From Candidatus Woesearchaeota archaeon (lineage in GTDB: Archaea > Nanobdellota > Nanobdellia > SCGC-AAA011-G17 > JACPIM01): DNA of 64,000 nt. The position numbers and the translations under genes are program-made. Position 1 is the first letter of the stretch. Each line of letters opens with the position of its first letter. The DNA is taken from positions 26,137-90,136 of the forward strand of contig JACPIM010000006.1 in assembly GCA_016188045.1 (NCBI GenBank), given 5' to 3'. Shown piece after piece: positions 3,485 to 59,326 of this stretch. Under the pieces are notes generated by a model. That model worked only from the letters and a program-made list of their open reading frames with translations, was not told where the DNA came from and made no database searches.

Positions 3485-3520
3485 CAAGATATTTAAATAA
3501 ATAATAGTTATATAATTAAT

Positions 3521-3916
3521 ATGAGAAAAGAAATAGAAAATTGGTGGAAACAGGCAGAGGCAGACCTTAACTCAGCAAAGAATAGTTTCAATAGTAAGGA
3601 CTATTATGTCTGTGCATTTTTATGTCAGCAGGCAGTTGAAAAGGCGCTAAAGGCTTTACTTTTTAAGAAAGGATTTGAATTAATAAAAACACATGATTTA
3701 GTTCTATTAGCAAAAAAAATAAATGCACCGGATAATATTATTCAGTTATGTAAGATTCTAACGCCAGTTTATATTGAAACTAGATATCCTAACATTGATC
3801 AAGACGGATTTAAAAAATTTACCAAAGAAGAGACCAAAGAAGAGACCAAAGAAGAGACCAAAGAAGATATTAAGACTGCAGAGGAGATTATAAAATGGAC
3901 AAAAAAAAATCTATAA
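3521..3916 (+). CDS. HEPN domain protein (COG2250-type, TRYPN motif) with a C-terminal KEET tandem repeat
   Basis: QQAVEKALKALL and IETRYPN motifs are typical of the HEPN partner in HEPN/MNT pairs. The gene overlaps the downstream MNT gene. Confidence 0.6.
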   Translation: MRKEIENWWKQAEADLNSAKNSFNSKDYYVCAFLCQQAVEKALKALLFKKGFELIKTHDLVLLAKKINAPDNIIQLCKILTPVYIETRYPNIDQDGFKKFTKEETKEETKEETKEDIKTAEEIIKWTKKNL

Positions 3917-4212
3917 TAAATCAACTTAGAGAATTTAAATTAAAAACCAGCCATGAATTGCCTATAAAGAATATGTATCTATTTGGATCAAGAGCAAGGG
4001 GGAAGGCACATAGATGGAGTGATGTAGATTTGATAATAGTTTCAAAAAAGTTTAAAAAACTAACCTTTAGAAAGAGGGTTACAAAAATGTATGATTACTG
4101 GTATTTGGACTATCCAGTAGATTTTCTTTGTTACACTCCAGAAGAATTTGAAAGAAAAAAGAAAGAATATGGAATTGTAAAACAAGCGGTTAAAGAGGGT
4201 ATTGAGTTATAA
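3895..4212 (+). CDS. minimal nucleotidyltransferase (MNT), partner of the HEPN protein
   Basis: LFGSRARGKAHRWSDVDLIIV matches the Pol-beta NTase GSx9-13DxD motif. It overlaps the HEPN gene by 22 nt. Confidence 0.65.
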   Translation: MDKKKSIINQLREFKLKTSHELPIKNMYLFGSRARGKAHRWSDVDLIIVSKKFKKLTFRKRVTKMYDYWYLDYPVDFLCYTPEEFERKKKEYGIVKQAVKEGIEL

Positions 4213-4275
4213 CTATTAAAAAAATGAAATTTTTAGATTGCTTGGCTATGCTCTAATATTATCTAAGGCCTATTA

Positions 4276-4656
4276 TTAATTTTCATAAATTCTTGAAACA
4301 TAATCTTCAATATTGCCCTTCTTTCTTTCCCTTAATGCTTGATCTTGTTTTACTGGCTTCCTTGTTTTTGAAAAATCAATTTCCCTTGGAGCTATTGGAG
4401 TATCATAAGATTCAAATAAATATCTATAATCTGTTCCAATAACCTTTCCTTCACTTCTTCTAATTCTTTCAACAAACCCATATTTCTGCATTTGTTCAAG
4501 CAATCTTTCAATTGTAGTTTCCCTGCTTTTATCATCAATAACTACAATATGGTATCTTACAAGTCCATATTCAGGAGAAATTTCCCAATTCCATCTAACA
4601 TGCCTTTCTCTATTACTTATTTTTATAGCTTTTGAAGTTTCAGTCTGGATTTTCAT
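4276..4656 (-). CDS. hypothetical protein
   Basis: 126-aa ORF with no recognisable motif. Confidence 0.3.
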   Translation of the reverse strand: MKIQTETSKAIKISNRERHVRWNWEISPEYGLVRYHIVVIDDKSRETTIERLLEQMQKYGFVERIRRSEGKVIGTDYRYLFESYDTPIAPREIDFSKTRKPVKQDQALRERKKGNIEDYVSRIYEN

Positions 4657-4700
4657 TTTAACCTCTAGTTATATATAAAAACAAATAGATAAATTTATGA

Positions 4701-4716
4701 GGTGATAATATTCACC
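4701..4716. promoter_or_regulatory. inverted repeat GGTGATAATATTCACC upstream of a TATA-like box of the TrmB-like gene; candidate operator
   Basis: Perfect 5-bp arms GGTGA/TCACC with a 6-nt spacer. AGATTATATAG follows at 4721-4731, about 27 nt before ATG 4752, which implies a leaderless mRNA. Confidence 0.3.
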
Positions 4717-4751
4717 ACAAAGATTATATAGTTTTAAATATTTATGAAAGT

Positions 4752-5462
4752 ATGAATAAAGAAATTTTAAAAGAAATTGGTTTAACAGAGAATGAATCTA
4801 AGGTTTATCTTGCTTTGTTAGAGTTAGGACCTAGTTTGGCTGGTCAAATATCAAGAAAAACAGGGTTGCACAGAAGAACAGTTTATGACACAACAGAAAG
4901 GTTAATCGAGAAAGGCTTAATTGGTTATATCTTAAAAAATAATAGAAGAGTTTTCGAATCAAGTTCTCCTAAAAGATTTCTTGAAGTTATAAAAGAGAAA
5001 GAAAATTCAATAAATGAGATTTTACCAGAACTATTATCTTCTTATACTAAAACAAGAGAAAAACAAGAAACTAATTTTTATAATGGCAAAGAAGGAATAA
5101 AAACGGTTTTAGAAGATCAAATAGAGACAGGAAAAGAGATATTGATTTTAGGAGCGAGTTCTTTAGCTTACGAAGTTTTACAATTTTATTTTAAATGGTT
5201 TGATAAAAGAAGAAAAGAAAAAAAGATAAAAGCTAGAATAATTTTCAGTAAAAATATAAAAAAAATAAATATTCCGTTTGCAGAAATTCGTTATCTTCCA
5301 GAAAAATATTCATCTCCCTTGGCAATTAATATTTATAGTGATAAAGTTGCCATAATATTATGGAGCAAGGAGTCTCCAATAGCAATAGTTATAAAAAATA
5401 AAGAGATTTCAGAAGGATATAGAAAATATTTTGAGTTGGTTTGGAAAAATGCTGGAAGATAA
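4752..5462 (+). CDS. TrmB-family winged-helix transcriptional regulator
   Basis: N-terminal LTENESKVYLALLELGPSLAGQISRKTGLHRRTVYDTTERLIEKGLI matches the TrmB HTH. A paralog lies at 39712..40452. Confidence 0.6.
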   Translation: MNKEILKEIGLTENESKVYLALLELGPSLAGQISRKTGLHRRTVYDTTERLIEKGLIGYILKNNRRVFESSSPKRFLEVIKEKENSINEILPELLSSYTKTREKQETNFYNGKEGIKTVLEDQIETGKEILILGASSLAYEVLQFYFKWFDKRRKEKKIKARIIFSKNIKKINIPFAEIRYLPEKYSSPLAINIYSDKVAIILWSKESPIAIVIKNKEISEGYRKYFELVWKNAGR

Positions 5463-5463
5463 A

Positions 5464-6000
5464 TTATTTGTAATAAAAATACCCCTTGCATCCATTTGGT
5501 AATTTTGAAGGTTTTCTATGTTTAATCATATCTTGAGAAACTGCTTCGCCTCCAAACCATAAAGGAGAGAAGTCAATTGGAACACCATCAAGTTCTTTTT
5601 CATCTGTTCCTATTTCTAAAGCTTTTGTTAAATTTCCAGGACCATGAACACGTTCTCTCAATCCAACTTTATCGTATATATCTCCAGAAATAAACGTCAC
5701 ACAAGAAGGAAATCCTGTCTCTAGAGTTGCTACTCCTAAAACTTTTTTAGCATGTCTTGTTATAACTATTAAACTGCCAGGAGCATACAAAGTTTCTTTT
5801 GCCATATCTCTATCGTCCTCCCAAGGTGCGACTTCTGTTAATCTTGCATATAATTGAGCTTTTCCTTCGCGCTCTCTAACTAGTACTCTTCCTAATAGCT
5901 CTTTTGCAACTTCTTCAGCAGGCCTTGCAAAAAACTTTCTATCTAATGCCTCGCTTCTTTGGGGAATATAATATTCTTCAATAGATTTATTGGGTACCAT
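5464..6000 (-). CDS. 3-methyladenine (methylpurine) DNA glycosylase, Mpg/AAG family-like
   Basis: FFARPAEEVAKELLGRVLV ... EVAPW ... PGNLTKALEI resembles the MPG N-terminus and core. GC and Arg/Ala content are higher than the surrounding genes. Confidence 0.5.
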   Translation of the reverse strand: MVPNKSIEEYYIPQRSEALDRKFFARPAEEVAKELLGRVLVREREGKAQLYARLTEVAPWEDDRDMAKETLYAPGSLIVITRHAKKVLGVATLETGFPSCVTFISGDIYDKVGLRERVHGPGNLTKALEIGTDEKELDGVPIDFSPLWFGGEAVSQDMIKHRKPSKLPNGCKGYFYYK

Positions 6001-6044
6001 TTTATAACTATACAGTAGTCATATAAAGTAAGCTTTATAAACCT

Positions 6045-9000
6045 TTGTGCGATGTATTTTTCATGGAAAAACAAAAGAAATATGCTAATTTTCAAGAGTC
6101 ATGCGAACTAAAAGCAAGAGAAGGGACTCCAGCCGAAAGAGCAGAAGCAAGAAAGTATCTAAAGCCTGGCAAGGTATCTCTAAAACTAGCTCTTGATGCT
6201 GAAAGGAGAAAGTTAGAAAGAGCTACAACTGCAAATGATATTGCATTAATTGAAAGATATGGAAATAATATAGAAAAAGCTGAAGAAATAGGAATGAGAA
6301 CAGGAGAGCTTGAATTGACTTATGAGGGGGCAGAAAGAATTTACAAAAAAGTTAAGCAAATGGTTAAAGAAGCAGGTGTTAGGTCAAACACTGATTATTT
6401 AGGAATGTTTGATGTTTTTGACCCAATAACTGAACAAGACTTCATATCTACAGGAATGCTTTGCCTTGTTCCAGAAGTTAGGGAAATAGTAATGAATAAT
6501 GCAAGCACATTGTACAGGATAGCTTTAACAGCTAATTCTCGAAGAAGTTCGGGTTATGCCTTGCCTACTAGACATAAATCAGAAAGATCTTTTGAAGATA
6601 TGATCAATTCTCCAATTAGAACAATCTATTCTTCCTTGCCCAAACCAAAAGATGAAACAGAAGAAGAATTTCAAAGAAAATTAAAAGTTTTGCTGGACAA
6701 AAAAGTAGAAAGAGAAACCTTTCCTTTATTTAGAGATGCTCCTAAAAAAGCAATAGAAACTTTAGATAGAAAAATAACTGAAACAGAAAATGAAGGCTTA
6801 AGAGAAGCATATCAAAGATTACAAGGAACTTATAAGGGCTACTTGGATTTTAAATTAGAAGGAACAAATTTCAATTTTAGAGACCCAAGAACAGGAGAAC
6901 GTGGAGTTCTTCCTTCTTTGCATCAAAGAAGTGCCTTATATCATTTAATGAAAGAGCAAAAATTGGGAATTTTTGATGGATGTGGGACAGGAAAAACTGC
7001 AATAGCAACTTTAGCTCAACCATTAATTGAAAAACAGACTGGAAAAAAACCAAAAGTTCTTGTTGTAGTCGGTACAAATCAGGCAAAAAAAGCATGGAAA
7101 AAAGGGCTTGTTGGAGATAGTTCTCAAAGATACCTATCTGAACCTCAAAATGTTTTTGTGGTCAATGGAGAAAGAAAAGATAACAGATTTATGGAAGAAA
7201 TTGAAAAAGCAGATTGGGTTGTAATGAATAAAGAACAGTTGATTGTTAAGTCAAATGGAGGAGAAAGATTATTTTATGAAGATTTAAGAGATATGGACTT
7301 TGATTATTTTATTTGTGATGAAGCTCATCATATAAAATCACATAGAAAAACAACCAAAGGAGGCAGGCCCACATTAAGCATAGCTGCCCAAGAATTAGCT
7401 AAAAGTGCAAGATATGTAGCTTTATTGACTGCTTCGCCTATTGCAGACAGGTTAAATGATTATGGAGTGTTAGCAAGCATTCTTCAGCCAGAAAGATTTC
7501 CAACTCCTCAAAGTTTAGCAGAAAAAATAAGGCAAAATCCAAGAGAATTATATACCTTTTTTCATGAAAAAACAGTAAGAAGAACTTCTGAAGAAATTAA
7601 TGAAGAACTAGATTGGGAAGAGCGAGAAATTCCCATAGAAATGACTCCTGTTCAAGAAAAAATATACAGGCATCTTGAATTAGAACAGCCAGAGCAGTTT
7701 TTACAGCAAGCAACAAAAGCTCTTCTTGATCCAAGGCTTGTTGACCCTGAAGTTTTAAGAAGAGCGGGAGTTTTAGGAGAAGTTGGAATAGAAAGCTCTG
7801 CGAAGTATAAAAGATTAGAAGAAATACTTACTTCTGATAAGAGCCCTATAACAAGAGGAGAAAAGTTTGTTATTTTTACAGAATTAAGAGAAGGAGTTAC
7901 AGAACAAGAGCATGAATATTTAAGAAAACGTTATGAAGAAATAGGCCATCCGGAACTTTATGCTCAACTGCAATTAAATTTAACTCTTGACAGGATAATA
8001 GAGAGAGCTATTCAAAAAAAGTTTGGCAAAGAGTTAAAAGTAAGAGTTTTAGATGGTTCAATAACAGACATAGAAGAAAAAGAAAGGATAGTAGATAGAT
8101 TAACTCAAGATTTAGCTGGATTGGTCTGCACAACAGATACGGGAGGAGAAAGCCTTGATTTTAGCTCAGCGAGTTATGCTGCATTTTTAAGTGAAGATTG
8201 CGCCCCTAAAACTTCAGAGCAAGCTTTGTCAAGGCTATTAAGAAAAGGGCAATCTAAAAAAGTTAGAATAGATTATTTTCGTGTTCCAGATTCTCTTGAT
8301 ACAAAAATTAGAGATTATGTTGAGGCAAAAAGAATAGTAATAAAAATTGCTACAGACGGCCACAGCTTGCTTGAAAAAGAGCTAGAGCTGCTTGAAACTT
8401 CTGGAAGAGAAAGATTAATTGAAATGGTAAAAAAAAGCGTTGGCGGAACATCTATAGACACTTATAAGGCTGAAGTCAAAGAATTAGATGATTTTGAAAC
8501 TAAAAAAAGAGTGAAGAAAGGCAAAAGAAGCAGAAGCATAATAACTGCAAGTGATTATGAAACAACAGATGCTCAAAGAGTCAATCAATTAATAGGACAG
8601 AATCCAGTAAGCTGTTGGTTTAACCAAGAATTTGTTGATTTTTACATGAGAACTTTACCAAATCTTTCTCCTCCAGTTGTTCATAAAGCAAGAGTTATTG
8701 ATTTAATAAAAAGAGCAAAAGAAAGACAAGTTGTTTTTCCAAAAAATGTTTTAGCAGAAGCTTCTGGACCTTCAATGCTTTATGAATCTTACCAAGAACT
8801 TTCTCATTTAATAGCTCAAGCAGGAAATTCAATTCCTGAAGTTACAGACAGAGATATTTCTGCTTTAATGTTAGAAAGAGGAAAGAATTCAAGAAAAATA
8901 CTCGGAAATATGAATGGAGATGCAAGCGCAATTACAGACAGAAGCTTTGACATGGTTGACAATGGCTCTCTTCTTTTATTGCCAAGTCCTATTGAAATCA

Positions 9001-9512
9001 AAAAAACATTGTTAGAGTCTCATAGAGTTTTGAAAGAGCAAGGTTTATTGGAATTAGTTTTAAAAAATACAAAATTCTCTGATTCATTTTACTCTGGACT
9101 TGAGAGTTTAGGATTTGAAATTGTTTCAGATAAAAATACAGGCTTTGCAGTTTCTCGAGATTTCTTGAGAAGGCTAAAAGAAACTCATGGAGGGCATTAT
9201 GCAGAAAGTTATGCTTCTAAATTAGAAGATACATACATGCTCTTAGCAAGAAAAGTTGATAATCCAATAGATGTTGATGCAGATGCTTTTAGTTTTGAGC
9301 CTCTTGAAAACAATTCTGGAGAAGAGCCAGAAAGCGCAAGAGATCCAAGTGAATCAAGAAGCATAATGATAGCCAAAGGCAGAGACTATCTAAAGCCTAG
9401 AAGAAGATATCCAAAGAAACCCCAGAAAGTCATTACACCTGAAAGAGAAGTCACAGTTGATAAATGGGGAACTGTCATAGATGTGAAGAAGATAGGAGGA
9501 GAAGATGGTTAA
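6045..9512 (+). CDS. large SNF2-like superfamily-2 helicase/ATPase with long N- and C-terminal extensions
   Basis: Motif I GIFDGCGTGKTAIA, motif II ICDEAHHIKS (DEAH), motif III LLTASPIADRLNDYGVLASIL (SNF2-like TGTPxxN spacing), motif V TDTGGESLDF, motif VI QALSRLLRKGQ. Met 6063 is an alternative start. The gene is Arg-rich and GC-richer than the genome. Confidence 0.65.
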   Translation: MCDVFFMEKQKKYANFQESCELKAREGTPAERAEARKYLKPGKVSLKLALDAERRKLERATTANDIALIERYGNNIEKAEEIGMRTGELELTYEGAERIYKKVKQMVKEAGVRSNTDYLGMFDVFDPITEQDFISTGMLCLVPEVREIVMNNASTLYRIALTANSRRSSGYALPTRHKSERSFEDMINSPIRTIYSSLPKPKDETEEEFQRKLKVLLDKKVERETFPLFRDAPKKAIETLDRKITETENEGLREAYQRLQGTYKGYLDFKLEGTNFNFRDPRTGERGVLPSLHQRSALYHLMKEQKLGIFDGCGTGKTAIATLAQPLIEKQTGKKPKVLVVVGTNQAKKAWKKGLVGDSSQRYLSEPQNVFVVNGERKDNRFMEEIEKADWVVMNKEQLIVKSNGGERLFYEDLRDMDFDYFICDEAHHIKSHRKTTKGGRPTLSIAAQELAKSARYVALLTASPIADRLNDYGVLASILQPERFPTPQSLAEKIRQNPRELYTFFHEKTVRRTSEEINEELDWEEREIPIEMTPVQEKIYRHLELEQPEQFLQQATKALLDPRLVDPEVLRRAGVLGEVGIESSAKYKRLEEILTSDKSPITRGEKFVIFTELREGVTEQEHEYLRKRYEEIGHPELYAQLQLNLTLDRIIERAIQKKFGKELKVRVLDGSITDIEEKERIVDRLTQDLAGLVCTTDTGGESLDFSSASYAAFLSEDCAPKTSEQALSRLLRKGQSKKVRIDYFRVPDSLDTKIRDYVEAKRIVIKIATDGHSLLEKELELLETSGRERLIEMVKKSVGGTSIDTYKAEVKELDDFETKKRVKKGKRSRSIITASDYETTDAQRVNQLIGQNPVSCWFNQEFVDFYMRTLPNLSPPVVHKARVIDLIKRAKERQVVFPKNVLAEASGPSMLYESYQELSHLIAQAGNSIPEVTDRDISALMLERGKNSRKILGNMNGDASAITDRSFDMVDNGSLLLLPSPIEIKKTLLESHRVLKEQGLLELVLKNTKFSDSFYSGLESLGFEIVSDKNTGFAVSRDFLRRLKETHGGHYAESYASKLEDTYMLLARKVDNPIDVDADAFSFEPLENNSGEEPESARDPSESRSIMIAKGRDYLKPRRRYPKKPQKVITPEREVTVDKWGTVIDVKKIGGEDG

Positions 9513-10287
9513 AGAAAGGCCAAGCAAAGAGGAGTTGGAGAGATTGTATTGGGAGGAAGGAATGAGTCAAAGAAAGGTAGCTAAAAAATATAGAATGTCA
9601 GATAATACTTTAATTTGTTTAATGAATAAATTAAATATAAAAAGGAGAAAAACAGGAGGCAGTCCAGAAAGGAGTCCCTGGCCAAATTTTGAAAGTTGGA
9701 AAGCTTATGGAGTAGAAAGAGGTTACGAATTAAGTAATCCCGAAAATGTAAAAAAAGGAAATAAAGAAGAAAGGTCTTGGTATAATAAAGGAAGCAAAAA
9801 AAGATGGATATTAAAGTTTGATTTCAATAGAATGAGATTAGATGGAAAATGGGAAGAATTTCAAGAGTGGGAAAGATATGGCTTAGAGAGGGAATTTAAT
9901 AAAAGAAATCTTAACAGTTTAAGAAATAGTGAAAATGCTGAAGAAAGATCTTGGTATTGTAAAGGAAACAAAAAGAAATGGTTCCCCAAATTTGAATTTG
10001 CTGGGTTGAAAAGAAAAAAAAGATCTGTTAAAAGCGGCCAATGGAAAGATTTACAATTTGCATTACAACAAGCTAAATTATTTCTAGAAAAACACCCAGA
10101 ATATGAAGAATTACCTAGAGCTCGAATTATGTATCGGCTCGGTGTTTTTACCCTCGGACATGCAATCTATACATATCACGGTGGTTTCCCTGTTTTTCGG
10201 CAATTATTAAATGAGTATATGGGAAGAACATCTGTTATTGATCAACCTTCATTATTAGAGCAATATATTGGAGGAGAAAATGACTGA
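9505..10287 (+). CDS. HTH DNA-binding protein, paralog 1 of a three-gene family; C-terminal tail DQPSLLEQYIGGEND
   Basis: N-terminal ELERLYWEEGMSQRKVAKKYRMSDNTL resembles a sigma-r4/resolvase HTH. Internal duplicated motif ERSWY(N/C)KG.KK.W..KF.F. The start overlaps the helicase stop. Confidence 0.45.
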   Translation: MVKERPSKEELERLYWEEGMSQRKVAKKYRMSDNTLICLMNKLNIKRRKTGGSPERSPWPNFESWKAYGVERGYELSNPENVKKGNKEERSWYNKGSKKRWILKFDFNRMRLDGKWEEFQEWERYGLEREFNKRNLNSLRNSENAEERSWYCKGNKKKWFPKFEFAGLKRKKRSVKSGQWKDLQFALQQAKLFLEKHPEYEELPRARIMYRLGVFTLGHAIYTYHGGFPVFRQLLNEYMGRTSVIDQPSLLEQYIGGEND

Positions 10288-11053
10288 TTTTCTGCCTATA
10301 GGAACATTCTATGCAAATCTTTCTGGAGCACAGAGAAGAGCGATATTATATGCTATTGAAAAAGGTCTTGAATTAAGGAATTCTTGTCCTTGGATTGCAG
10401 ACGAGTTTAGGCAAGGAAAATCAATATCCGCTCTTGCACAAGATGAAAGAATAAAAAAAAGTTTTAATGGAAGCATAAAAACTTTGTATAGGGCATTAAG
10501 CCTTGCTTTAGGTGGTTATAATAGGGAAGTTTCTTTTTCTGAAATCCAACAATATTCTGGCTTAATTCCAAATGAAGAATATCTATCTTTAATACAAGAG
10601 CATAATAAACAATCAACCAATGAATGGAATAAACAAATGCAGGAAAGAGGCATAGGACTCGCTGCAATGACGCGCAAACAAAGACAAGAGATTGGTAGAA
10701 GAAGTGGATTGAAACAATTGGAGAATAAGATTGGAATTCATGCGCAAACACTAGAAGAAAGAAAACTCATAATAAAAAAAGCATTAGTTGCTCAAGGCAA
10801 GACTCCTTGGGAAAATGACGAGATGAAACATTGTTATGAATTATCTTTACAAGAAAGATTTAGAAAAAGTTCAAGAGTTAACTGGGAAGATATCGCGGTA
10901 TCTGTTAATCAAAAATATCATGCAGGAAAAAGCCTAAGAGATAACAGAGCAGTTGCAAAGGCAGCAAAAAAATGGGAAGAAAGAAATATGCCTAAGCAAG
11001 AAAGAGAGAATTCTTCTCTTTTAGAGCAGTATATTGGAGAGGAAGATGGGTAA
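10268..11053 (+). CDS. paralog 2 of the HTH family (lacks the N-terminal HTH); C-terminal tail SSLLEQYIGEEDG
   Basis: Shares the C-terminal SLLEQYIG tail with the other two paralogs. The start codon is embedded in the previous gene's terminal ggaggagaaaATGa. Confidence 0.4.
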   Translation: MEEKMTDFLPIGTFYANLSGAQRRAILYAIEKGLELRNSCPWIADEFRQGKSISALAQDERIKKSFNGSIKTLYRALSLALGGYNREVSFSEIQQYSGLIPNEEYLSLIQEHNKQSTNEWNKQMQERGIGLAAMTRKQRQEIGRRSGLKQLENKIGIHAQTLEERKLIIKKALVAQGKTPWENDEMKHCYELSLQERFRKSSRVNWEDIAVSVNQKYHAGKSLRDNRAVAKAAKKWEERNMPKQERENSSLLEQYIGEEDG

Positions 11054-11633
11054 AGAAAGACCGAACAGGGAGGAACTAGAAAGATTGTATACAGGTGAAA
11101 AGTTATCTGCTATTCAAATAGCAAAAGGATACGGAGTTAATTTCGCTAGAGTTTATAAATGGATGAAAGGTTATGAAATAAAAAGAAGAACTAAAAGTGA
11201 AGCAGTTAAATTGTATAATTGTAAAAGAATACCTGGAAAAAATGAATTGAAAAAATTAAAAAATATTCCCATAAAAGAAATTGCGATAAAATATGGGATT
11301 AATCAAACAACTGCCAGAAGTTGGTTAGATAGATATGATATAAAAAGGAAGAAGCATAAAAAAAATGTTAAACGAGGTTCATGGCAAAGTTTAGAATTTA
11401 CCTTAGAACAAGCAAAATTATTTTTAGAAAAGCATTCTGAATATGAAGAATTGCCAAGTGCAAAAATACTTTCAAAAAAAGGATATATAACTCTTGGAAC
11501 AATAATAGTTAGGTATCACGGCGGCTTTCCTGTCTTTAGACAAAAGTTAGAAGCATACATGCGAGGCGAGCCAATTCCTGAAAACCCAACAGATCAACCT
11601 TCATTATTAGAGCAATACATTGAAGATAGTTAA
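11034..11633 (+). CDS. paralog 3 of the HTH family; two HTH-like segments and C-terminal DQPSLLEQYIEDS
   Basis: ELERLYTGEKLSAIQIAKGYGVNFARVYKWM and IKEIAIKYGINQTTARSWL HTH-like segments. LEQAKLFLEKHSEYEELP...YHGGFPVFRQ is shared with paralog 1. Confidence 0.45.
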   Translation: MERKMGKERPNREELERLYTGEKLSAIQIAKGYGVNFARVYKWMKGYEIKRRTKSEAVKLYNCKRIPGKNELKKLKNIPIKEIAIKYGINQTTARSWLDRYDIKRKKHKKNVKRGSWQSLEFTLEQAKLFLEKHSEYEELPSAKILSKKGYITLGTIIVRYHGGFPVFRQKLEAYMRGEPIPENPTDQPSLLEQYIEDS

Positions 11634-11635
11634 CC

Positions 11636-11675
11636 ATTTTTCACAACCCTATTTCAACTTTATTATTTTTTTAAC
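11636..11675. repeat. degenerate third copy of the gyrA 3'-end repeat (TTCACAACCCTA...CAACTTTAT)
   Basis: Shares TTCACAACCCTA and CAACTTTAT with the repeats at 12056 and 13509 but lacks the central GAAACACTAG. Confidence 0.3.
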
Positions 11676-11996
11676 TAACATATCTTGATAAATTTTGAAT
11701 GCCTTACGATTTTCTTTCTTGTAAATATAAGGTGTTCCGATATCTTCTTTACATTTAGGGCAACTTAATGTTGGAATTGTTTTCAAAGGTTTAGTTTCAA
11801 GATTAGTCAGATTCTTTGGATAAAAAATTCTATCAAAATAAAGTCTCCGTAAATTGCCAGGACCATCTTTTTGGTAAACAAGAATCTTTTTACCACAAAC
11901 CCTACAAAATAGATCCATCAATCTTGAATACGTTCCCCTTACAGTTTTATATTTATCTTTTTTGAATTCAAAGCCCACATTATAATAAAATAACAA
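11649..11996 (-). CDS. hypothetical Zn-ribbon protein (CxxC ... CxxC)
   Basis: CRVCGKK and CPKCKED cysteine pairs. 115 aa. Confidence 0.35.
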   Translation of the reverse strand: MLFYYNVGFEFKKDKYKTVRGTYSRLMDLFCRVCGKKILVYQKDGPGNLRRLYFDRIFYPKNLTNLETKPLKTIPTLSCPKCKEDIGTPYIYKKENRKAFKIYQDMLVKKIIKLK

Positions 11997-12055
11997 AAGT
12001 ATTTATTAATGTTTTGATTAAACACCATAATAATATCCCAAAAATTATCAGCTAT

Positions 12056-12108
12056 TCTTCACAACCCTAGAAACACTAGCAACTTTATCGTTTTCTTTTA
12101 ATCTTATT
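12056..12108. repeat. displaced in-frame copy of the gyrA 3' end (about 53 nt, roughly 88% identical to 13509..13560); putative attL-like scar
   Basis: The minus strand encodes RLKENDKVASVSRVVKNS-stop, versus the GyrA C-terminus [18 protein letters not shown]-stop. Same orientation as the copy inside gyrA. Confidence 0.6.
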
Positions 12109-12190
12109 AAATTATTCAATAATTATTTAAAGTTATGTACATTAACATGGCCATAAAGTTTATAAATAAGTACATACCGATGTACATAAC

Positions 12191-13447
12191 ATGGAAAAAG
12201 CCAAATTAGAAGAATTTAATCATTGGTGGACAACCAGTAAAGTAGACGAAGAGTTAGCCTTGCCATTCAAAAGAAGTATATATTCAGAAATAGAAGGGCA
12301 CATCAATAAAAGGTTCATATTAGCTTTAGTTGGATTAAGGAGAGTTGGAAAAACAACAATAATATATCAAATTATAAAACAGTTACTAGAAAAAAACGTC
12401 GATAAGACAAATATTTTATTTTTTTCATTTGATGAAGTTTCAGCTGAATTAAGTGAAGTCCTAGAAACGTTCAAAGAAGTCCATAACAAAGACTTCAGAA
12501 AAGAGAAAATCTATGTTTTTCTTGATGAAATTCAGAAATGTAATAATTGGGAAAACGAACTAAAAAAATATTATGATCTTTATCCCAAACTAAAATTTAT
12601 AATAAGCGGCTCAGAATCTCTTTTCATAAGAAAAAAAACTAAAGAAACTCTGGCAGGAAGAATTTTTGAATTTGCTCTAAATCCATTCGCTTTTAGAGAA
12701 TATCTTAGATTTAATGAAATTAGTGAAGATGAATTTAAATATGAAACAAAAATAAAACCACTTTTTATTAAATTTGCAGAGAAAGGCGGTTTCCCAGAAA
12801 CATTTTCTTTTGAAACCGACAAGGAGTTTAAGGAATATATTAGGTCTCTAGTAGTTGATAAAATAATTTATAAGGATATTCCGAGAATATTTAAATTAGA
12901 AGACCCAGACTTCTTAAGGGTTCTTCTAGAATTAATTGCTACAAATCCAGGAATGTACATCGATTACCAATCCCTAAGTAAGCAATTTGAGAAAGATAGA
13001 AGAGTAATAAAAAGTTATATCACTTATCTTAAAGAAAGTTTTTTGATAACACTGTTAGGTAATTATAGGAAAGGGAGCATAATAACTTTAAGAAAGAAAA
13101 AAAGAGCCTATCCTGCAGATAATGCTTTGATATATCTATACAAACCAACCATTGATGAAGATTTTTTTGGAAAAATGGTTGAAGTTTTAGTAGTAAATAA
13201 ACTTAAAGCTTCATCTTTCTGGAAAAATAGTGGAGAGATAGACATAGTTCATGAAGATATCCCAATAGAAATAAAATATCAAGAAAAGATAAACTCAGAA
13301 GATTTTAAGCCAATAAAGGAATTTATGAAGAAATTTAATAAAAAAGAGGGTATAATGATAACTAAAAATGAAGAAAGAGAAATAAAGTTTGAAAAAGGCA
13401 TAATAAAGTTAATTCCTGTTTGGAAATGGCTTCTTGAAGAAAAATGA
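12191..13447 (+). CDS. AAA+ ATPase of the archaeal AAA_14/DUF4143 family
   Basis: Walker A LALVGLRRVGKTTII, Walker B VFLDEIQ, and a C-terminal DUF4143-like region. Preceded by a TATA-like TTTATAAATA at 12154-12163. Confidence 0.75.
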   Translation: MEKAKLEEFNHWWTTSKVDEELALPFKRSIYSEIEGHINKRFILALVGLRRVGKTTIIYQIIKQLLEKNVDKTNILFFSFDEVSAELSEVLETFKEVHNKDFRKEKIYVFLDEIQKCNNWENELKKYYDLYPKLKFIISGSESLFIRKKTKETLAGRIFEFALNPFAFREYLRFNEISEDEFKYETKIKPLFIKFAEKGGFPETFSFETDKEFKEYIRSLVVDKIIYKDIPRIFKLEDPDFLRVLLELIATNPGMYIDYQSLSKQFEKDRRVIKSYITYLKESFLITLLGNYRKGSIITLRKKKRAYPADNALIYLYKPTIDEDFFGKMVEVLVVNKLKASSFWKNSGEIDIVHEDIPIEIKYQEKINSEDFKPIKEFMKKFNKKEGIMITKNEEREIKFEKGIIKLIPVWKWLLEEK

Positions 13448-13498
13448 ATTTGGAAAGTATATTATTTTTGATATATTTTGTGTAAATGAACCACTTCC

Positions 13499-16400
13499 TC
13501 AACCGTTTTTCATAACCCTAGAAACACTAGCAATTTTATCCCCTTCTTTTAATCTCATTATTATAACACCCTGGCTGTTTCTCCCAACTTTAGATATATT
13601 ATTTACCTCAGTTCTTATTATCTGTCCTTTAACAGTTATACACATTATTTCATCGTAATCTTTCACAGTTTTAATTCCAACAACTTTTCCATTTTTCTCA
13701 GTTACATTAATATTCTTAACCCCAGAACCACCTCTTTTAATTAATCTATATTCACCCATACTAGTTCTTTTACCATATCCATTCTCAGTAACAGTTAGCA
13801 AATCTCCATCTTCTAAAGCAACCTCCATTCCAATAACCCCATCATCTCTTAATCTAATTCCTCTTACCCCAGTTGCATTTCTTCCCATTACTCTAACATC
13901 TTCCTCATTAAACTTGACAGCTTGCCCGTTTTTAGTTCCAATTATAAAATTTAGATACCCAGGAGTTAATCTAACTTGAACTACTTCATCATTATCATTA
14001 AGATTAATTGCATTTATCCCGCCTTTTCTAGGATTGCTATACTCTGAAAGCAAACTTTTTTTCAAAATTCCTTTTTTAGTAACAAAAATTAAAGAGTGTT
14101 TGTCATCAAATTCTTTTATAGGCAAGACAGCACTTACTTTTTCATTTTCTCCTAAATGCAATAGATTAATCAAAGCCCCGCCTTTTGCATATCTTGAAGC
14201 TTCAGGAATTTCGTAAGCCTTTAGCCAATGAACTCTCCCTTTATTAGTAAAAAACAACAATTGACTTAGATTGCTTGTAATAAATAATTCTTGAACCACA
14301 TCTTCTTCTTTAGTCGTAGTAGCTCTAATACCAGTTCCGCCTCTTCCTTGGCTTCTATAAAGTTCTAAAGAAGTTTGTTTTGCATATCCAGAAGAAGTAA
14401 TAGTCACAACAATATCTTCTTCATTTATCAAATCCTCATTAGTTACAACTTCCTCAATTTGATTTGATATTAATGTTTTTCTTTCATCTCCATATTCATT
14501 CTTGATTTCACTTAATTCGCTTTTTATTATTCCGAATATTTTTCCAATATCAGCTAAAATATTTTTCAATTCTTCTATCAGTATTAACAAATGTTCATAT
14601 TCTTCTTGTATTTTTCTGGTTTCTAAGGAAGTCAATCTTTGTAATCTCATCTCCAAAATAGCATTAGCCTGTATTTCTGTTAGCTCAAATCTCTGAACTA
14701 ATCCCATTCTCGCAACATCAACACTTTCGCTTCTTTTTATTAATTGAACAACAGGATCAATATTACTTAGTGCGATTCTTAAACCTTGCAATATATGTGC
14801 TCTTTTTTCAGCTTTATCTAATTCAAATTTGGTTCTTCTGATAACAACCGTTTTTCTATGAACAATAAATTCCTTAATTAATCCCTTTAAGTCTAAAACT
14901 TTAGGTTCATTGTTTACTAAAGCCAAATTAATAACACCAAACGTAGTTTGTAAAGAACTGAGTTTATACAGTTGGCTTAATATCAATTCACCATCAAAAT
15001 TTTTCTTTAATTCAATTACAATCCTCATTCCCTTTCTGTCGCTTTCATCTCTTATATCTGAAATACCTTCAATTCTTTTATCATGAACTAACTGAGCTAT
15101 TCCCTCAATCAATAATGATTTATTTACCATATAAGGAATTTCTGTTATGATTATCTTATCTTCCATAACTTCTGCCTTGGCTCTTACAGTTAGTTTTCCC
15201 CTTCCGCTTTCATAAGCGCTTTTAATTCCATTTTCTCCTAAAATAATACCGCCAGTAGGAAAATCAGGTCCTTTAATGAATTTCATTAACTCTAAACTAT
15301 TGCATTCAGGATGATCTATTGCAAAAATAATAGCATCACAAACTTCTCTGATATTATGCGGTGGAATATTAGTAGCCATTCCAACAGCAATACCACTAGA
15401 TCCGTTAATTAATAAATTTGGTAATTTACTTGGTAATACGGTTGGTTCTTTTTCACTATTGTCAAAATTATTCACCAAATCAACTGTATCTTTATCAATA
15501 TCAATTAAGATTTCTTCAGCCATTTTGCTTAATTTGGCCTCTGTGTATCTGTATGCAGCAGCAGCGTCTCCATCTACGGAATTATGTACAAAAACACCGC
15601 AATCTAAAAGAAAATTATGATTTTCATTAACTGTGATATCATACACATCTTCTATGTAATCTAAAAATTTAATGCTTACAACATAGTGATTGTATTCTTT
15701 AGCCAATACAACCATTTCATTAATATTTTTAAAGTATCTTATGACATTGTTAAATCTTGGAAAACAATTATTTGTTCTAAATTTATTATAATTTTCTTCG
15801 TTTATATTATCTTCACCAAGAGTAGTAATTAGCCTGTTAACATAATACAGTATTTTGTTCTTTATTATACTTTTTTTATAATTATCATTTTTCCAGTTCA
15901 TCTTATGGGCCATAGCGGCTTTTTGTGCAATATCTTTCATAAAATTTGGTTTATTTTTTAATCTTAACAAATTACTCTTTCTAATGCCGCCTATAACTTT
16001 TTTCCTGAAATTTTCATTGGCCCACAATTTCTTCATTTTTTCGATTTGTAGTTTTTTATACTCTTCATTTTGCCAAGCCTTTTTAGCCATTTCACTTAAA
16101 TGATTATGATTTTCATTAATGAACTTCAATCTGTAATCATTTTCTTTCCAAAGTTTTTTGCTTCTTTCAGAAATCAATTTACGTGCTTCTGAATTATTTC
16201 TATAGAACTCTTTAATGCTCTGTGCTCTTTTTTGTATGACTTCAGGATGTTCTAAAATATTTTTTTTTTGTTTTTCAGATATCTTATTTTTTATTTCTGG
16301 TTTATTTAGTGCCCTTTTGATGCTTTTAATTATAGAATCTCTTTTTTTCTTATCACTCCACATTTTTTTAGAAAATTCTGACATGCATTTTCTTCTTTCA

Positions 16401-17500
16401 GGATGTTTATTATAATTTTCTTTAATTTTATCTGAAAGTTTATGCCTTAATTCTGGATTTTTCCAAAGTTCTTTTCTTTTTTGAGAAGATTTTTTTATAA
16501 AGTTAAGATCTTTGTTTCTTTCAATAAGCCTTTTTCTTAATTTTTCTATATGTTCCGGGTTATTTTTATAGAAGTTTTTAACACCTGCCCTTTGTTTTAA
16601 TCTAAAACCCAAACCCTTCCAATTTTCTTTTATTTGAGTGTTGTGAATTTTTGTATGATCATTCCAACTTAGTCTCTTTAAATTATCTGGACTATTATCG
16701 AGCTTATTAAAATTAACATGGTGTTTTACAGGCCCATCGTTTATAGAATAAAGGCCCCTTTCTAAATTATAGGCATCAGCAATTTCATGGACAAAAAAAT
16801 ATCTATCTTCTTTGTTATCCTTTATCATCAAATAATCTTTTAATTCAGTATTGCCCCTTATCGGACTAAGTTTAAAGTAACCTGGCATTAAACTATCATC
16901 TGGGGTTAAATATCTCGCTTCTTTATATTTTAAATTTTTTAATAAAAATCTGTGATCTGGTGTACATCTTATTATCTCGCCGCCATCTAATGTTATCTCA
17001 ACTATTTCTGAATCTTTCTTTGTTAATCTTGGATTCTTAGCTTCCCCAACTACAATTTTACCATCTTTATTAATAGAATAAACATAAAATATTTCATCTT
17101 TTTTATAAAGTTCACAAAGTTCTTTAAAACTTTTAGAAGTTCCATCTAATAATTTAATTTTTGTATCCCCTGTAAAACAACCAAAATTTCCCTGTCCTTT
17201 AACTAAAGGATATCTTAATGAAAAATTCTGAGCCATTCTGACTAAAGCATCATAAACAGACATATCGCCGTGGGGATGAAATTTTGCTAGAACAGTCCCA
17301 ACGACATTTGCACTTTTCTTAAATGCTTTATTATAATCTAAACCTAATTGTTTCATAGCATAAAGAACTCTCCTATGAACTGGTTTTAATCCATCTCTGA
17401 CATCAGGAATAGCTCTTGCTACAATAACACTCATAGCATAGTCCATATAGGACTGCTTCATCTCATCTTCAATTAGTCTTTCTTGAATTTCTTCTGGCAT
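13499..17500 (-). CDS. gyrA: DNA gyrase subunit A, containing a 533-aa intein
   Basis: N-extein ...[33 protein letters not shown] | C-extein [17 protein letters not shown]..., then GyrA-box-like repeats to the C-terminus. The total of 1333 aa corresponds to about 800 aa of GyrA plus the intein. Confidence 0.85.
13509..13560. repeat. gyrA 3'-terminal coding sequence that is duplicated at 12056..12108 (attR-like)
   Basis: See the alignment with 12056..12108. Lies within the last about 20 codons of gyrA. Confidence 0.6.
15581..17179 (-). other. GyrA intein (gyrA-a site) with an HNH endonuclease motif and an array of about 12 basic 25-aa repeats
   Basis: Begins [13 protein letters not shown] after GNFG and ends CGVFVHN before SVDGD. 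HNH-like [27 protein letters not shown]. Repeats of the type K..W.NPE...K.S.K.KE. Confidence 0.7.
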
Positions 17501-17502
17501 TT

Positions 17503-17997
17503 CTATTTACCTACCACAACTCCCCCGATATAATCTTGATTAAAAACTTCTTCTCCATTATACAATATTCTTTCATGTCCACTAAATCTTCTGATATCGC
17601 CTAGGACTTCGTTTACATATTCCCATTTACCATATTTTAAATTATTGGGCCCCCTAAACGGCATTTGTAAAGGAACCGCACCCAAAGCTTTTTTCAAAAA
17701 ACCAAAAACTTGCTTTGCAAAAGCAACATCACCATAAAATCTATCTATCATACCACCAGAATATGCCATAGTCCAAATTGGTGTCCCATCTTTAACGCCA
17801 ATTCTAACAATCTCCATTCCGGGAGCTTGAAAAAAACCACAATAACTATCTCTGTAATAATATTCTCCTTCTTGGAATTCTAATTCATCAAATCTTGGTC
17901 TTTCTGATGCTATCTTCATTTTATTTACAGAGGCATAAGTATTTTTTTTAGCTTCTACCAAAAACTCTGCTAATTCCTCTAAATTTAATTCTCCCAT
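17503..17997 (-). CDS. hypothetical protein encoded between gyrB and gyrA
   Basis: 164-aa ORF with 2-nt spacing to the gyrA start and to the upstream ORF. No motif recognised. Confidence 0.4.
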
Positions 17998-18196: not shown

Positions 18197-20131
<1,935 letters not shown>

Positions 20132-57552: not shown

Positions 57553-58113
57553 ATGGATAGGAGAGTCAGTGAACTATCAATATTAGAGAAATTTGTAAAT
57601 AATTTTGTTTCTATAGTTGAAAAACATTGCAAATATGTGGTTGTTTCTGGTTTTGTTGCAATTGCTCATGGAAGAACAAGAGGAACAGAGGATATTGATA
57701 TAATAATAGAAAGATTAGATGAACTTAAATTTTATAAATTGCATAATGATTTATTGAAGAAAGGATTTGTTTGTGTTCAGGCAGATGATGCAAAAACAGT
57801 TTGTGATTATCTAAAAGATAATTTAAGTGTTAGGTATATTAAAAAAGGCACTTTTGTTCCAGAGATGGAAGTTAAATTTACAAAAGATTCATTAGATGAA
57901 TATCAAATACAGACAAGAAAAAAATTACCTCTTAGTGGCCTGGATATTTATTTTTCTACAATAGAAATGAACATAGCATCTAAAGAGGAATTATTAAAAT
58001 CTGAAAAAGACATGGAAGATGCAAAACATTTAAGAGAAGTTTACTCTGATGAAATAGATGAAAATGAGATTAATAAGATAAAAAAAGAAATTAAAAGATT
58101 AAGATTAAAATGA
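57553..58113 (+). CDS. Pol-beta-superfamily nucleotidyltransferase-like protein
   Basis: VVSGFVAIAHGRTRGTEDIDIII is NTase-like (G[SG]x9-13DxD). First gene of a five-gene overlapping operon. Confidence 0.4.
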   Translation: MDRRVSELSILEKFVNNFVSIVEKHCKYVVVSGFVAIAHGRTRGTEDIDIIIERLDELKFYKLHNDLLKKGFVCVQADDAKTVCDYLKDNLSVRYIKKGTFVPEMEVKFTKDSLDEYQIQTRKKLPLSGLDIYFSTIEMNIASKEELLKSEKDMEDAKHLREVYSDEIDENEINKIKKEIKRLRLK

Positions 58114-58307
58114 GAGATAAAACACATTCAGAACAGATTGTAAGATGGGCAAGATTTGTAAAAAACAATGATATTTCTACTTGGAAACCAATGGTTAAAG
58201 CTTTAACAGATTCACAAATAATTATGGCAAATAGATTTTATTCAAATTTGATAAAAACTGAAAAAGGAAAATTAAAAGCTGAAAAATTGTTAAAAAGGAA
58301 GCTATGA
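58110..58307 (+). CDS. small basic hypothetical protein
   Basis: 65 aa. Overlaps both neighbours (ATGA-type overlaps). Confidence 0.3.
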   Translation: MRDKTHSEQIVRWARFVKNNDISTWKPMVKALTDSQIIMANRFYSNLIKTEKGKLKAEKLLKRKL

Positions 58308-58308
58308 A

Positions 58309-58974
58309 ATGACCCTCAAACTATCACCTTCAAGTATAAACCTAATGCTAGAATGCCCTAGATGCTTCTGGCTTCAAATAGTCAAGAAAATAAAACGCCC
58401 TGAATCTATTTTTCCTTCTCTCCCTTCTGGCATGGATAAGATATTAAAAGAGCATTTTGATAGATTTATGGAAAAAAACGAATTACCTCCCGAAATAAAA
58501 GAGCATGTTAAAGATTGTAAATTATTCAATGATAAGGAAAAACTTAAAATTTGGAGAAATAACTTAAAAGGCATAGAGTATAAAGATGAGGAAAATGATA
58601 TTCTTTTGCATGGTGCAGTTGACAATTTACTAGTAAAAGGCAAAAAATTAATAGTTTTAGACTATAAAACTAGAGGTTTTCCATTAAAAGAAGATACTCA
58701 TGAGCATTATCAGGTTCAGCTTGATTTGTATAATTTTTTATTAAGGAAGAATAATTATGAAACAGAAGATTATAGTTATTTATTGTTTTATTATCCTAAT
58801 AAAGTATTAGAGACCGGAGAAGTTATATTTGATACTAGATTGATTAAGATGAAGACTAGTAGTTTAGATGGAGAAAAGATATTTAAGGAAGCTGTTAGAG
58901 TTATTAAGAATAATATGCCTGAAGCTGGAAAAGAGTGTGGGTTTTGTAGGCGAATAAATGAAAATGGACCATAG
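58309..58974 (+). CDS. Cas4/RecB-like PD-(D/E)xK nuclease with putative Fe-S cysteines
   Basis: N-terminal CPRCFW, core GAVDNLLVKGKKLIVLDYKT (D..D-Y-K), QVQLDLY (QxxxY), C-terminal CGFCRR. This four-Cys arrangement is like Cas4/AddB nucleases. No CRISPR array is nearby. Confidence 0.55.
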   Translation: MTLKLSPSSINLMLECPRCFWLQIVKKIKRPESIFPSLPSGMDKILKEHFDRFMEKNELPPEIKEHVKDCKLFNDKEKLKIWRNNLKGIEYKDEENDILLHGAVDNLLVKGKKLIVLDYKTRGFPLKEDTHEHYQVQLDLYNFLLRKNNYETEDYSYLLFYYPNKVLETGEVIFDTRLIKMKTSSLDGEKIFKEAVRVIKNNMPEAGKECGFCRRINENGP

Positions 58975-59326
58975 TACAAAGATTCAAGAATTAAAAGAAA
59001 AAATAAAACAATTTTGCGAGGATAGAGATTGGGATCAGTATCATGGAGCAAAAGAACTTTCAATAGGGGTAATTACGGAGGCTTCTGAATTATTAGAACA
59101 TTTTAGATTTAAATCAGAAAAAGAAATTGAAGAGTTTTTTAAAGATAATAACAAAAAGGAGAAAATTTCTGAAGAAGTAGCTGACGTATTATATTTCATT
59201 TTAAGATTTGCTCAAAGATATGATATTGATCTAGCAACCGTATTAAATAAAAAAATGGAAAAAAATGAACAAAAATATCCTTTAGAAAAATCAAAAGGGA
59301 GTAATAAAAAATATACAGAACTATGA
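58958..59326 (+). CDS. MazG-like nucleotide pyrophosphohydrolase (small all-alpha NTP-PPase)
   Basis: ITEASELLEHF and EEVADVLYFILRFAQRYDIDL match the MazG EExxE/D motifs. Confidence 0.6.
   Translation: MKMDHSTKIQELKEKIKQFCEDRDWDQYHGAKELSIGVITEASELLEHFRFKSEKEIEEFFKDNNKKEKISEEVADVLYFILRFAQRYDIDLATVLNKKMEKNEQKYPLEKSKGSNKKYTEL

Follow-up and report, generated by a model that had tools for sequence, protein, structure and literature searches.

In this study, we show that a one-gene cassette encoding an AAA+ ATPase lies at the 3' end of gyrA in a woesearchaeal genome, that its boundaries coincide with two copies of the gyrA tail, and that the displaced copy is the ancestral gyrA tail. On the comparisons set out below, we favour, with confidence somewhat better than even, an integrase-free, homology-directed insertion of a cassette that would carry a spare copy of its target's tail. 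Coordinates refer to the window, the whole 64-kb stretch of DNA that was analysed.

A repeat search of the window identified a 62-nt direct repeat (12048-12109 versus 13499-13560, 84% identical ungapped, spacing 1451), and blastn-short returned its 52-nt core (12058-12109 versus 13509-13560) at 88.5% identity with an E value of 1e-10, confirming the recurrence of the gyrA 3' end that a preliminary description had placed at 12056..12108 with about 88% identity. Read on the minus strand, both copies are open to a stop codon in the same register, one of them reading NLIRLKENDKVASVSRVVKNS before the stop, so that the displaced copy is indeed in frame and stop-ending as described there. When up to 3 mismatches were allowed, a 25-nt pattern from the core was confined to these two sites in the 64 kb (0 expected from 100 shuffles), and a search for additional gyrA-tail or eIF2-gamma-tail copies across the window gave none except a marginal third copy; a tRNA scan of the window found no tRNA. 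An independently made Logan assembly (L001, run SRR12113424) contained both copies as well, thus the junctions are not an accident of assembly. While an AT-rich genome (~30% GC) and data drawn from metagenome assemblies might suggest that the similarity arose by chance, from low-complexity sequence or through a chimeric assembly, the E value, the shuffles, the identical structure in the Logan assembly and the finding of the same architecture in contigs of different samples (L080 and L081; L099, L100 and L101) make such an explanation extremely improbable.

The insertion target, gyrA (13499..17500, minus strand), encodes 1333 aa with DNA_topoisoIV (Pfam, 1.6e-156), six DNA_gyraseA_C repeats and an Intein_splicing match that marks an HNH-type intein at ~15581-17152 (minus strand). 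The closest relative, L002, whose gyrA shares 85% nucleotide identity with that of the window when the intein is left out, and a second relative, L003, have neither the ATPase nor the repeat; in both of these empty sites the genes directly after the single, insert-free tail copy are one of 350 aa and eIF2-gamma. The orphan fragment at 12048..12109 (minus strand), which closes with LIRLKENDKVASVSRVVKNS and a stop, is 92% identical over 65 nt to the L002 gyrA 3' end, and its peptide equals the L002 GyrA C-terminus, identical across 20 codons. Over 66 nt (22 codons) it differs from L002 at 7 nt, 6 of them third positions, with 1 non-synonymous codon, versus 7 of 22 codons non-synonymous in the gene-linked copy (13499..13560, minus strand). 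The insert-free L002 thus has a GyrA whose C-terminal peptide is that of the displaced copy, which identifies this copy as the ancestral ending and the present tail as imported, in agreement with the earlier proposal that the ATPase cassette was inserted at the gyrA 3' end and that the upstream-lying copy is the displaced ending.

The foreign tract seems to begin about 40 nt upstream of the repeat. Compared with L002, gyrA shows 4 differences at nucleotides -240..-100 from the stop and then 20 in the final 100 nt, and this jump in divergence, ~38 nt upstream of the repeat boundary, points to a probable co-converted gyrA tract at 13561..13600 (minus strand). However, the GyrA tail evolves fast in general (74% amino acid identity across the last 20 codons between L002 and L003), thus the putative co-conversion tract could reflect rate heterogeneity. 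A protein search with the GyrA C-terminus for the donor tail allele yielded only fragments of at most 63% identity and no donor allele, and exact database look-ups of GyrA and of a neighbouring 115-aa ORF returned no record.

The unit between the copies (12110-13498, 1.39 kb) is composed of its own putative promoter, the ATPase gene and a hairpin. The 5' region (12110..12190, plus strand), whose promoter function is inferred, contains a block found upstream of the ATG in every related cassette; its TATA-like box, TTTATAAATA, at 12159-12168 is flanked by ATGTACAT palindromes at 12135-12142 and 12180-12187, all on the plus strand; ATGTACAT occurs 4 times in the window versus 0.9 expected. The only substantial ORF between the copies (12191..13447, plus strand) is, as first described, the AAA_14/DUF4143 ATPase, a 418-aa fusion of an AAA+ ATPase with a PD-(D/E)XK nuclease, in which AAA_14 (PF13173, 3.5e-35) and DUF4143 (PF13635, 3.9e-15) are the sole Pfam domains and residues 26-417 match the PADLOC PDC-S01 model PDLC04787 at 9.6e-67. 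Walker A (GxxxxGKT) and Walker B (hhhhDE) are invariant in the family alignments, one arginine is also conserved, and the predicted catalytic residues E331, E349xD351 and E360xK362 are kept across the family, including paralogues of 23-41% identity. An AF2 model (pLDDT 79) had only generic AAA+ fold matches in the PDB (RFC, Cdc6, MgsA), a PDB sequence search with the ATPase found nothing, and no relatives were found in the viral contigs searched. At the right end of the cassette (13453..13486, plus strand), a predicted hairpin, AAAGTATAT-N-ATATATTTT, precedes a T-rich run and is terminator- or REP-like; it is common to L057, L058, L113, L115 and L117, and is repeated elsewhere in L059 and L061. 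The architecture and the PADLOC match liken the protein to PDC-S01 (AAA_14 plus DUF4143), a single-gene phage-defence candidate (PMC12988326), and DUF4143 is listed in the PD-(D/E)XK superfamily (PMC3424549). We found no account of cassette-like mobility or target-tail duplication in the PDC-S01 literature.

Cassette DNA of ~80% identity was found in more than 30 different contexts of groundwater DPANN metagenomes, and the homology of more than 60 other contigs to the window starts at 12114-12136 and stops at 13430-13489. At either end the homology thus reaches to within 10 nt of the repeats and the bracketing recurs elsewhere, so the cassette, for which the earlier description had offered relic status as an option, is no relic of a larger element. 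Of 33 distinct contexts, 9 have direct repeats from flank to flank that exceed the 99th percentile obtained with 1122 mismatched flank pairs, L084 having been left out of these results as a slicing artefact, and L066 is a further bracketed case. Counted over 37 contexts, the cassette lies between two diverged alleles of another gene or tRNA tail in 10 and has no flanking repeat in 27. Besides tRNA-Val (L055, L107), a tRNA with an intron (L066), an ORF for a protein longer than 1970 aa (L091) and some smaller ORFs (L076, L099) are among the targets, and the repeat sequences of gyrA, tRNA-Val, the other tRNA, the giant ORF and the others are unrelated to one another; Rfam searches of the repeat-bearing loci found tRNAs only. 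The closest ATPase relative is 84% identical, no fetched relative is located at gyrA, and the four NCBI contexts of the closest homologues (L126-L129) show no repeats and none lies at gyrA. Dispersed repeats in some other loci were rejected as target tails, being paralogous 5' ends with signal peptides in L075, a REP/terminator-like hairpin in L059 and L061, and non-coding repeats in L092 and L094.

The paired copies at these loci represent separate alleles with 73-91% identity, whose divergence took place under coding or tRNA constraint, so that both evolved as functional sequence. In L091, 16 of 17 substitutions between the tails fall at codon position 3, giving 15 synonymous codons and 1 non-synonymous codon, and the displaced copy carries one 2-nt insertion. 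The tRNA-Val fragments of L055 and L107 all start at the anticodon stem-loop TCGTTTACACC. Like repeats also bracket neighbouring HEPN/MNT cassettes, which have no DNA nuclease, in L080 and L081, so the process is independent of cargo; none of the 4 repeat copies there is joined to a visible gene body. Tandem arrays or accretion are seen in L107 and L080/L081.

Dedicated mobility machinery was sought both in the window and around the related cassettes. No recombinase domain was found in the scanned window ORFs, the cassette being one ORF; in 34 contexts, the 114 ORFs next to the cassettes included no integrase or transposase family represented twice or more, and no integrase lay within several kb in these contexts (up to ~6 kb where the contig allows), in line with the earlier remark that no integrase is present. 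A DNA transposon or IS was rejected: the repeat search listed no terminal inverted repeats between the cassette ends, there is no transposase domain, and the duplication is 62 nt, not short.

Under homology-directed insertion, a self-contained one-gene cassette (12110-13498) would have entered the gyrA tail together with a foreign replacement for the last codons, copied from a cassette-bearing allele of another lineage as template or donor. A first exchange would have fallen in the gyrA body ~100 nt before the stop and a second in or beyond the second tail copy; the replaced stretch would comprise the last ~20 codons, probably ~33. gyrA now closes with the imported tail, its own having been moved 1451 bp downstream and left as an orphan. 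The two tail copies would be portable homology arms, thus the cassette could enter any target-bearing genome, whatever lies downstream, and since the target gene stays intact only with 3'-terminal fragments, gene ends would be preferred. Fungal mitochondrial mORFs (PMC3630166) offer a documented precedent for this anatomy and logic. The break might come from the nuclease that the cassette encodes, or the ATPase gene might simply be selected or addictive cargo.

Direct repeats that restore the tail of the target typify integrase elements inserted at the 3' ends of tRNA and protein genes, as in e14 and phage 21 at icd or ICESt and the integrase-less CIMEs at fda, and the anticodon stem-loop is the classical place within a tRNA gene for the crossover of tyrosine integrases. 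If the integrase were encoded elsewhere and acted in trans on a CIME-like element with its sites in cis, site-specific recombination would make the repeats attL and attR, derived from an attP with a spare gyrA tail, and several observations agree with this: the repeats are target 3' ends, the target is restored and its original end displaced, the tRNA-Val repeats begin exactly at the anticodon stem-loop, cassettes accrete in tandem, and the displaced copy in the window is native-like throughout, as for a crossover at the 5' edge of the repeat. However, at least 8 unrelated targets share no core although the cassette proteins are 70-85% identical, and in L055, L091 and L099 the repeat starts 4-16 nt past the stop codon, leaving no room for arm sites. 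The divergence from L002 reaching ~38 nt past the repeat also suggests a foreign tract longer than the repeat, but this has to be read against the fast-evolving gyrA tail. Given the many unrelated targets, the lack of a nearby integrase and a foreign tract that apparently exceeds the repeat, mobilisation in trans, which the preliminary description had offered as an option, is a possible but unlikely explanation, less probable than homology-directed insertion.

Active homing would account for the same anatomy if the PD-(D/E)XK nuclease of the cassette cut cassette-free tails and the repair copied in the cassette with a cleavage-resistant tail. A close parallel is provided by fungal mitochondrial mORFs, mobile endonuclease ORFs that bring in a foreign version of the C-terminus of the gene they invade (Allomyces atp6; Glomus atp6, atp9, cox2 and nad3; PMC3630166): the order of gene core, foreign C-terminus, nuclease ORF and displaced native C-terminus is the same, the native copy matches a close relative while the inserted one is divergent, and several genes are invaded. 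The apparent co-conversion tract and the family-wide conservation of the predicted catalytic residues are also consistent with homing. The cassette differs from mORFs in its AAA+/PD-(D/E)XK fusion in place of LAGLIDADG or GIY-YIG, in its own putative promoter and an orientation often convergent with the target rather than in phase, in using tRNA genes as targets as well, and in having an archaeal rather than an organellar host, and cleavage of the empty site is hypothetical. Homing would moreover require proteins only 15-30% apart to recognise many unrelated targets, HEPN/MNT cassettes are bracketed alike with no DNA nuclease, most family members have no repeats, and the family is classed as a defence candidate (PMC12988326); we consider it decidedly unlikely. 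With the same reserve we regard the stronger proposal, doubtful at present, that PDC-S01-type proteins, among the commonest 'defence' genes, are in DPANN archaea at least the engines of a selfish homing-type element that invades the tails of essential genes and tRNAs. If true, it would be an archaeal counterpart of the mORFs with a new nuclease class, carrying a replacement tail. [quoted passage not shown] These are likewise of the defence type and lack a mobility gene; the direct repeats on either side exceed 30 bp, in some cases overlap the 3' end of a gene or a tRNA, and are present once in relatives with an empty site, as the repeat of the window is in L002 and L003; that survey holds no archaeal case. 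Their repeats are nearly identical (e.g. 44/46 or 47/47), in contrast to the 73-91% alleles found here, and those of the window are only 84% identical with the orphan the more conserved. Such a duplication predicts decay of the orphan and conservation of the gene-linked copy, and the window shows the reverse, with 1 non-synonymous codon in the orphan versus 7 in the gene-linked copy, while the third-position bias of L091 compares with about half expected under neutral drift (binomial P ~1e-4). This reading is strongly disfavoured and, in our estimate, very improbable.

Replacement of a gene tail by an inserted cassette is already known from integrase elements, bacterial restriction-modification insertions and fungal mitochondrial homing ORFs; here it is seen in DPANN archaea, with a one-gene PDC-S01 cassette and at many unrelated targets, including essential gyrA and tRNAs, with no visible recombinase. 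If the tail copies do act as homology arms, small defence or toxin-antitoxin genes would have a simple route of spread between related genomes of any gene order, and the chimeric ends of essential genes would be explained. Whether PDC-S01 genes are defence, selfish elements or both matters for predictions of immunity genes made through 'guilt by embedding'. Integron cassettes, including archaeal ones (PMC9668308), are similar as one-gene units of ~1-1.5 kb, sometimes arrayed with toxin-antitoxin cassettes, with repeats of 35-140 nt. The repeats described here are target-gene tails, not attC hairpins (fold z ~0), and that of the window, unlike attC, has its homologue in the coding sequence of gyrA in relatives that lack the cassette; attC-like repeats were rejected on their ssDNA folds (z -1.3 to +1.3). 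Also in contrast to integron cassettes, the putative promoter lies inside the cassette, and no IntI was found in the scanned window ORFs or the neighbours.

A degenerate third gyrA-tail copy had been reported at 11636..11675 and taken to suggest serial insertions at gyrA. The similarity exists (11623..11675, minus strand; 20 nt at 90%, E 0.38 by blastn-short) but is marginal, with a gapped score of 36 versus 33 for the best background in the window, thus serial insertion is not established in the window, the arrays of L080/L081 and L107 being real. This possible copy carries a deletion of 7-9 nt, does not keep the gyrA frame and forms the 3' end of a small Cys-rich ORF of 115 aa (11649..11996, minus strand). 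No Pfam, NCBIfam or PADLOC family scores above threshold for the ORF, and the fetched loci contain no homologue of it; with the displaced tail on one side and the possible third copy on the other, it is a candidate for an older second cassette.

The window lies in AT-rich DNA of a DPANN archaeon whose nearest gyrA relatives are Woesearchaeota MAGs, and an NCBI protein of a Candidatus Woesearchaeota archaeon, encoded on a 94-kb contig, has the same sequence as the ATPase. On the minus strand, gyrB (18197-20086, from the ORF list and domain scan), a DUF5680 gene between the two gyrase genes (17503-17997) and gyrA (13499-17500; 1333 aa, a length due to its intein) follow one another, and the ATPase gene (12191-13447, plus strand) is convergent with gyrA. 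The 3' end of gyrA, 62 nt that take in the stop codon (13499-13560), is repeated in the same orientation at 12048-12109, with 84% ungapped identity over the 62 nt and 88% in a 52-nt core (E = 1e-10), and both copies are in frame to the stop in the same register. The core has no other occurrence in the 64 kb and none in shuffled sequence, and the two-copy structure is reproduced in the Logan assembly of run SRR12113424. The gyrA-tail repeat around the ATPase gene is therefore real, confirming the preliminary description, which had reported the gyrA end recurring at about 88% identity, in frame and with a stop.

Two close relatives, L002 and L003, whose last 300 aa of GyrA are respectively 93% and 88% identical to those of the window, have a convergent 350-aa gene immediately downstream of gyrA, with eIF2-gamma next. 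Neither the ATPase gene nor the repeat was found at the gyrA end of either genome, a comparison that the preliminary description had suggested, and the C-terminus of L002 GyrA, RLKENDKVASVSRVVKNS before the stop, is identical to the peptide that the displaced copy encodes. In nucleotide sequence this copy shares 92% identity with L002 over 65 nt, and in a 22-codon comparison six of seven differences fall at third codon positions, while 7 of 22 codons of the gene-linked copy differ from L002 at the protein level. An orphan drifting after duplication in situ should be the more degraded copy and the reverse is seen, so the orphan is the native tail of this lineage, recently displaced, and the current gyrA tail came from outside, with the caveat that the GyrA tail generally evolves fast. 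The earlier interpretation of integration at the gyrA tail with a displaced copy was right in its core. Between the window and L002, only 4 positions differ from -240 to -100 nt before the stop, against 20 over the final 100 nt, and divergence jumps at a point upstream of the repeat boundary, about 38 nt from it; unless this reflects rate heterogeneity, foreign sequence would reach past the duplicated segment, as expected from co-conversion in homology-directed repair and not from a crossover within an att core. Over about 140 nt next to the divergent tail, on its upstream side (13600-13740), gyrA is about 97% identical to L002, against 85% for the whole gene, a mosaic that suggests frequent recombination between the two lineages.

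A metagenome scan with the ATPase as query recovered 72 loci, mostly from groundwater, with protein identity of 67-85%. DNA homology of related loci to the window starts at 12114-12136 and stops at 13430-13489, its limits lying 10 nt or less from the repeat edges (12109 and 13499), and flanking DNA varies by locus. The unit comprises a conserved putative promoter block (TATA-like TTTATAAATA flanked by ATGTACAT palindromes), the ATPase ORF and 4-50 nt of trailing sequence with a hairpin in some members; its GC content, 28%, is similar to the surroundings. The cassette is not the relic once envisaged, but belongs to a widespread one-gene cassette family whose members in DPANN archaea lie after the tails of genes and tRNAs and bring replacement tails. 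Its protein combines AAA_14 and DUF4143, the latter assigned to the PD-(D/E)XK superfamily (PMC3424549), and matches PADLOC PDC-S01 (9.6e-67), which is reported to be the fourth commonest predicted defence system, abundant in Archaea and with a predicted defence role (PMC12988326). Even distant paralogues conserve Walker A and Walker B, an arginine and the E..ExD..ExK nuclease motif. The AlphaFold model (pLDDT 79) is similar only to generic clamp-loader/initiator AAA+ proteins, with no recombinase fold among its matches, and the literature searched holds no account of tail replacement by PDC-S01 genes. On several contigs (L129, L128, L076, L079, L097), two or three AAA_14/DUF4143 paralogues share a stretch of a few kb, and one in L097, on the opposite strand, lies between the copies of a 99-nt direct repeat (3727-3825, 5258-5356).

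Left and right flanks were compared in 33 distinct contexts, with 1122 mismatched flank pairs as background and their 99th percentile as threshold. Repeats exceeded it in nine, the window included; L066 adds a tenth with wider spacing, and four further NCBI contexts had none, giving 10 bracketed contexts of 37. Wherever the target could be identified, the repeat was its 3' end: tRNA-Val(TAC) in L055, where the ATPase gene abuts the tRNA, an intron-containing tRNA in L066, in L091 the final 42 codons of an ORF longer than 1970 aa, and smaller-ORF tails in L076 and L099, whose orphans each keep peptide and stop. Third-position substitutions make up 16 of 17 between the L091 copies (15 synonymous, 1 non-synonymous; the orphan has one 2-nt insertion), so both copies diverged as coding DNA, each in its own lineage. 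Repeats span 31-140 nt. Cassette and target converge in the window, L055 and L076, and point the same way in L066, L091 and L099.

Other cargo is bracketed in the same way. In L080/L081, a fragment of about 110 nt encoding a PEP-CTERM-like C-terminus occurs in four copies, 73-94% identical (L080 122-225, 3121-3223, 4441-4553 and 5920-6032; L081 +1312), which set the ATPase and three HEPN/MNT toxin-antitoxin pairs apart from one another, one of the pairs being tightly bracketed. L107 has the intact tRNA separated from an ATPase-side tRNA-Val fragment by a segment of three genes. The process therefore does not require the ATPase as cargo and is repeatable at one site. Serial insertion, proposed earlier for the gyrA site, is accordingly plausible in general, but a possible third gyrA-tail copy at about 11623-11675 is weak, scoring 36 against a window background of 33 and having a deletion. 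The four L080 fragments are GC-rich within an AT-rich contig, each encodes a tail ..NVPEPATL..RRRK.. with a stop, no attached gene body is visible, and they are possibly of bacterial origin. The L107 segment includes a DUF5680-like ORF (1730-2227, minus strand), of the family to which the gene separating the window's gyrB from its gyrA belongs; this family may be cassette-borne as well.

Homology-directed insertion, passive and own-nuclease-triggered versions taken together, is in our judgement somewhat favoured, as it best fits an insertion with an imported tail and a displaced native one, a discrete cassette with many unrelated targets, variation in repeat length and orientation, independence of cargo and no nearby recombinase. 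The two tail copies would serve as portable homology arms, the first exchange falling in the target gene and the second in the other tail copy; the cassette could therefore move between genomes sharing the target but not the downstream DNA, and the gene-end bias would arise because only 3'-terminal fragments leave the target intact. Within this class, active homing driven by the cassette's own nuclease is attractive because the anatomy equals that of fungal mitochondrial mORFs, mobile endonuclease ORFs that bring a foreign C-terminus (PMC3630166), but closely related proteins have many targets and toxin-antitoxin cassettes lacking a nuclease are bracketed too, making it quite improbable.

An integrase acting in trans, for which the tRNA repeats beginning at the anticodon loop would speak, seems unlikely, if a little less so, given the target diversity, the lack of space for arm sites and the divergent tract extending past the repeat. 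In line with the preliminary description, no integrase was found: neither the 10-kb variable region from eIF2-gamma to gyrA nor the other window ORFs scanned yielded an integrase or transposase domain, and among 114 neighbour ORFs from 34 contexts, enriched in MNT-type nucleotidyltransferases and AbiEii, no such family had at least two members. The cassette has no terminal inverted repeats, and no relatives were found on viral contigs. Long target duplication in situ with later divergence (PMC2853133) is disfavoured by the substitution patterns of the two copies. Integron-like attC sites were rejected, as the repeats do not show attC-like hairpin folding.

Between genes in L059 and L061, mostly at gene 3' ends, a palindromic element TTTACACAAAGTATATCAAAAAGGATATACTTTCT is repeated (L061 7603-7654, 9006-9045, 9782-9827 and 10512-10568; compare window 13453-13486), which in these archaea has the look of a REP element or a terminator. 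From eIF2-gamma to gyrA (3485-11633) the window has an island, variable and about 8-10 kb long, that contains a HEPN+MNT pair (3521-4212), TrmB (4752-5462), an MPG glycosylase (5464-6000, minus strand), a SNF2 helicase with a methyltransferase-like C-terminus (6045-9512) and HTH proteins; the single 350-aa gene of L002 and L003 in this interval is missing. Three tandem paralogous ORFs (9505-10287, 10268-11053, 11034-11633) overlap head-to-tail and share the terminal motif ...SLLEQYI, the last having HTH_28/HTH_23 domains with weak transposase-HTH similarity. The HNH-type GyrA intein (about 15581-17152, minus strand) and the LAGLIDADG eIF2-gamma intein (about 860-2343, plus strand) are both lacking in L002 (GyrA 801 aa, eIF2-gamma 400 aa), and L003 GyrA has an intein (1238 aa), thus inteins are polymorphic among close relatives. 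What looks like a second defence-like cluster (57553-61851) carries a PD-(D/E)XK nuclease (58309-58974), a NERD + Schlafen-type helicase (59323-61191) and a RadC-like JAB protein (61174-61851).
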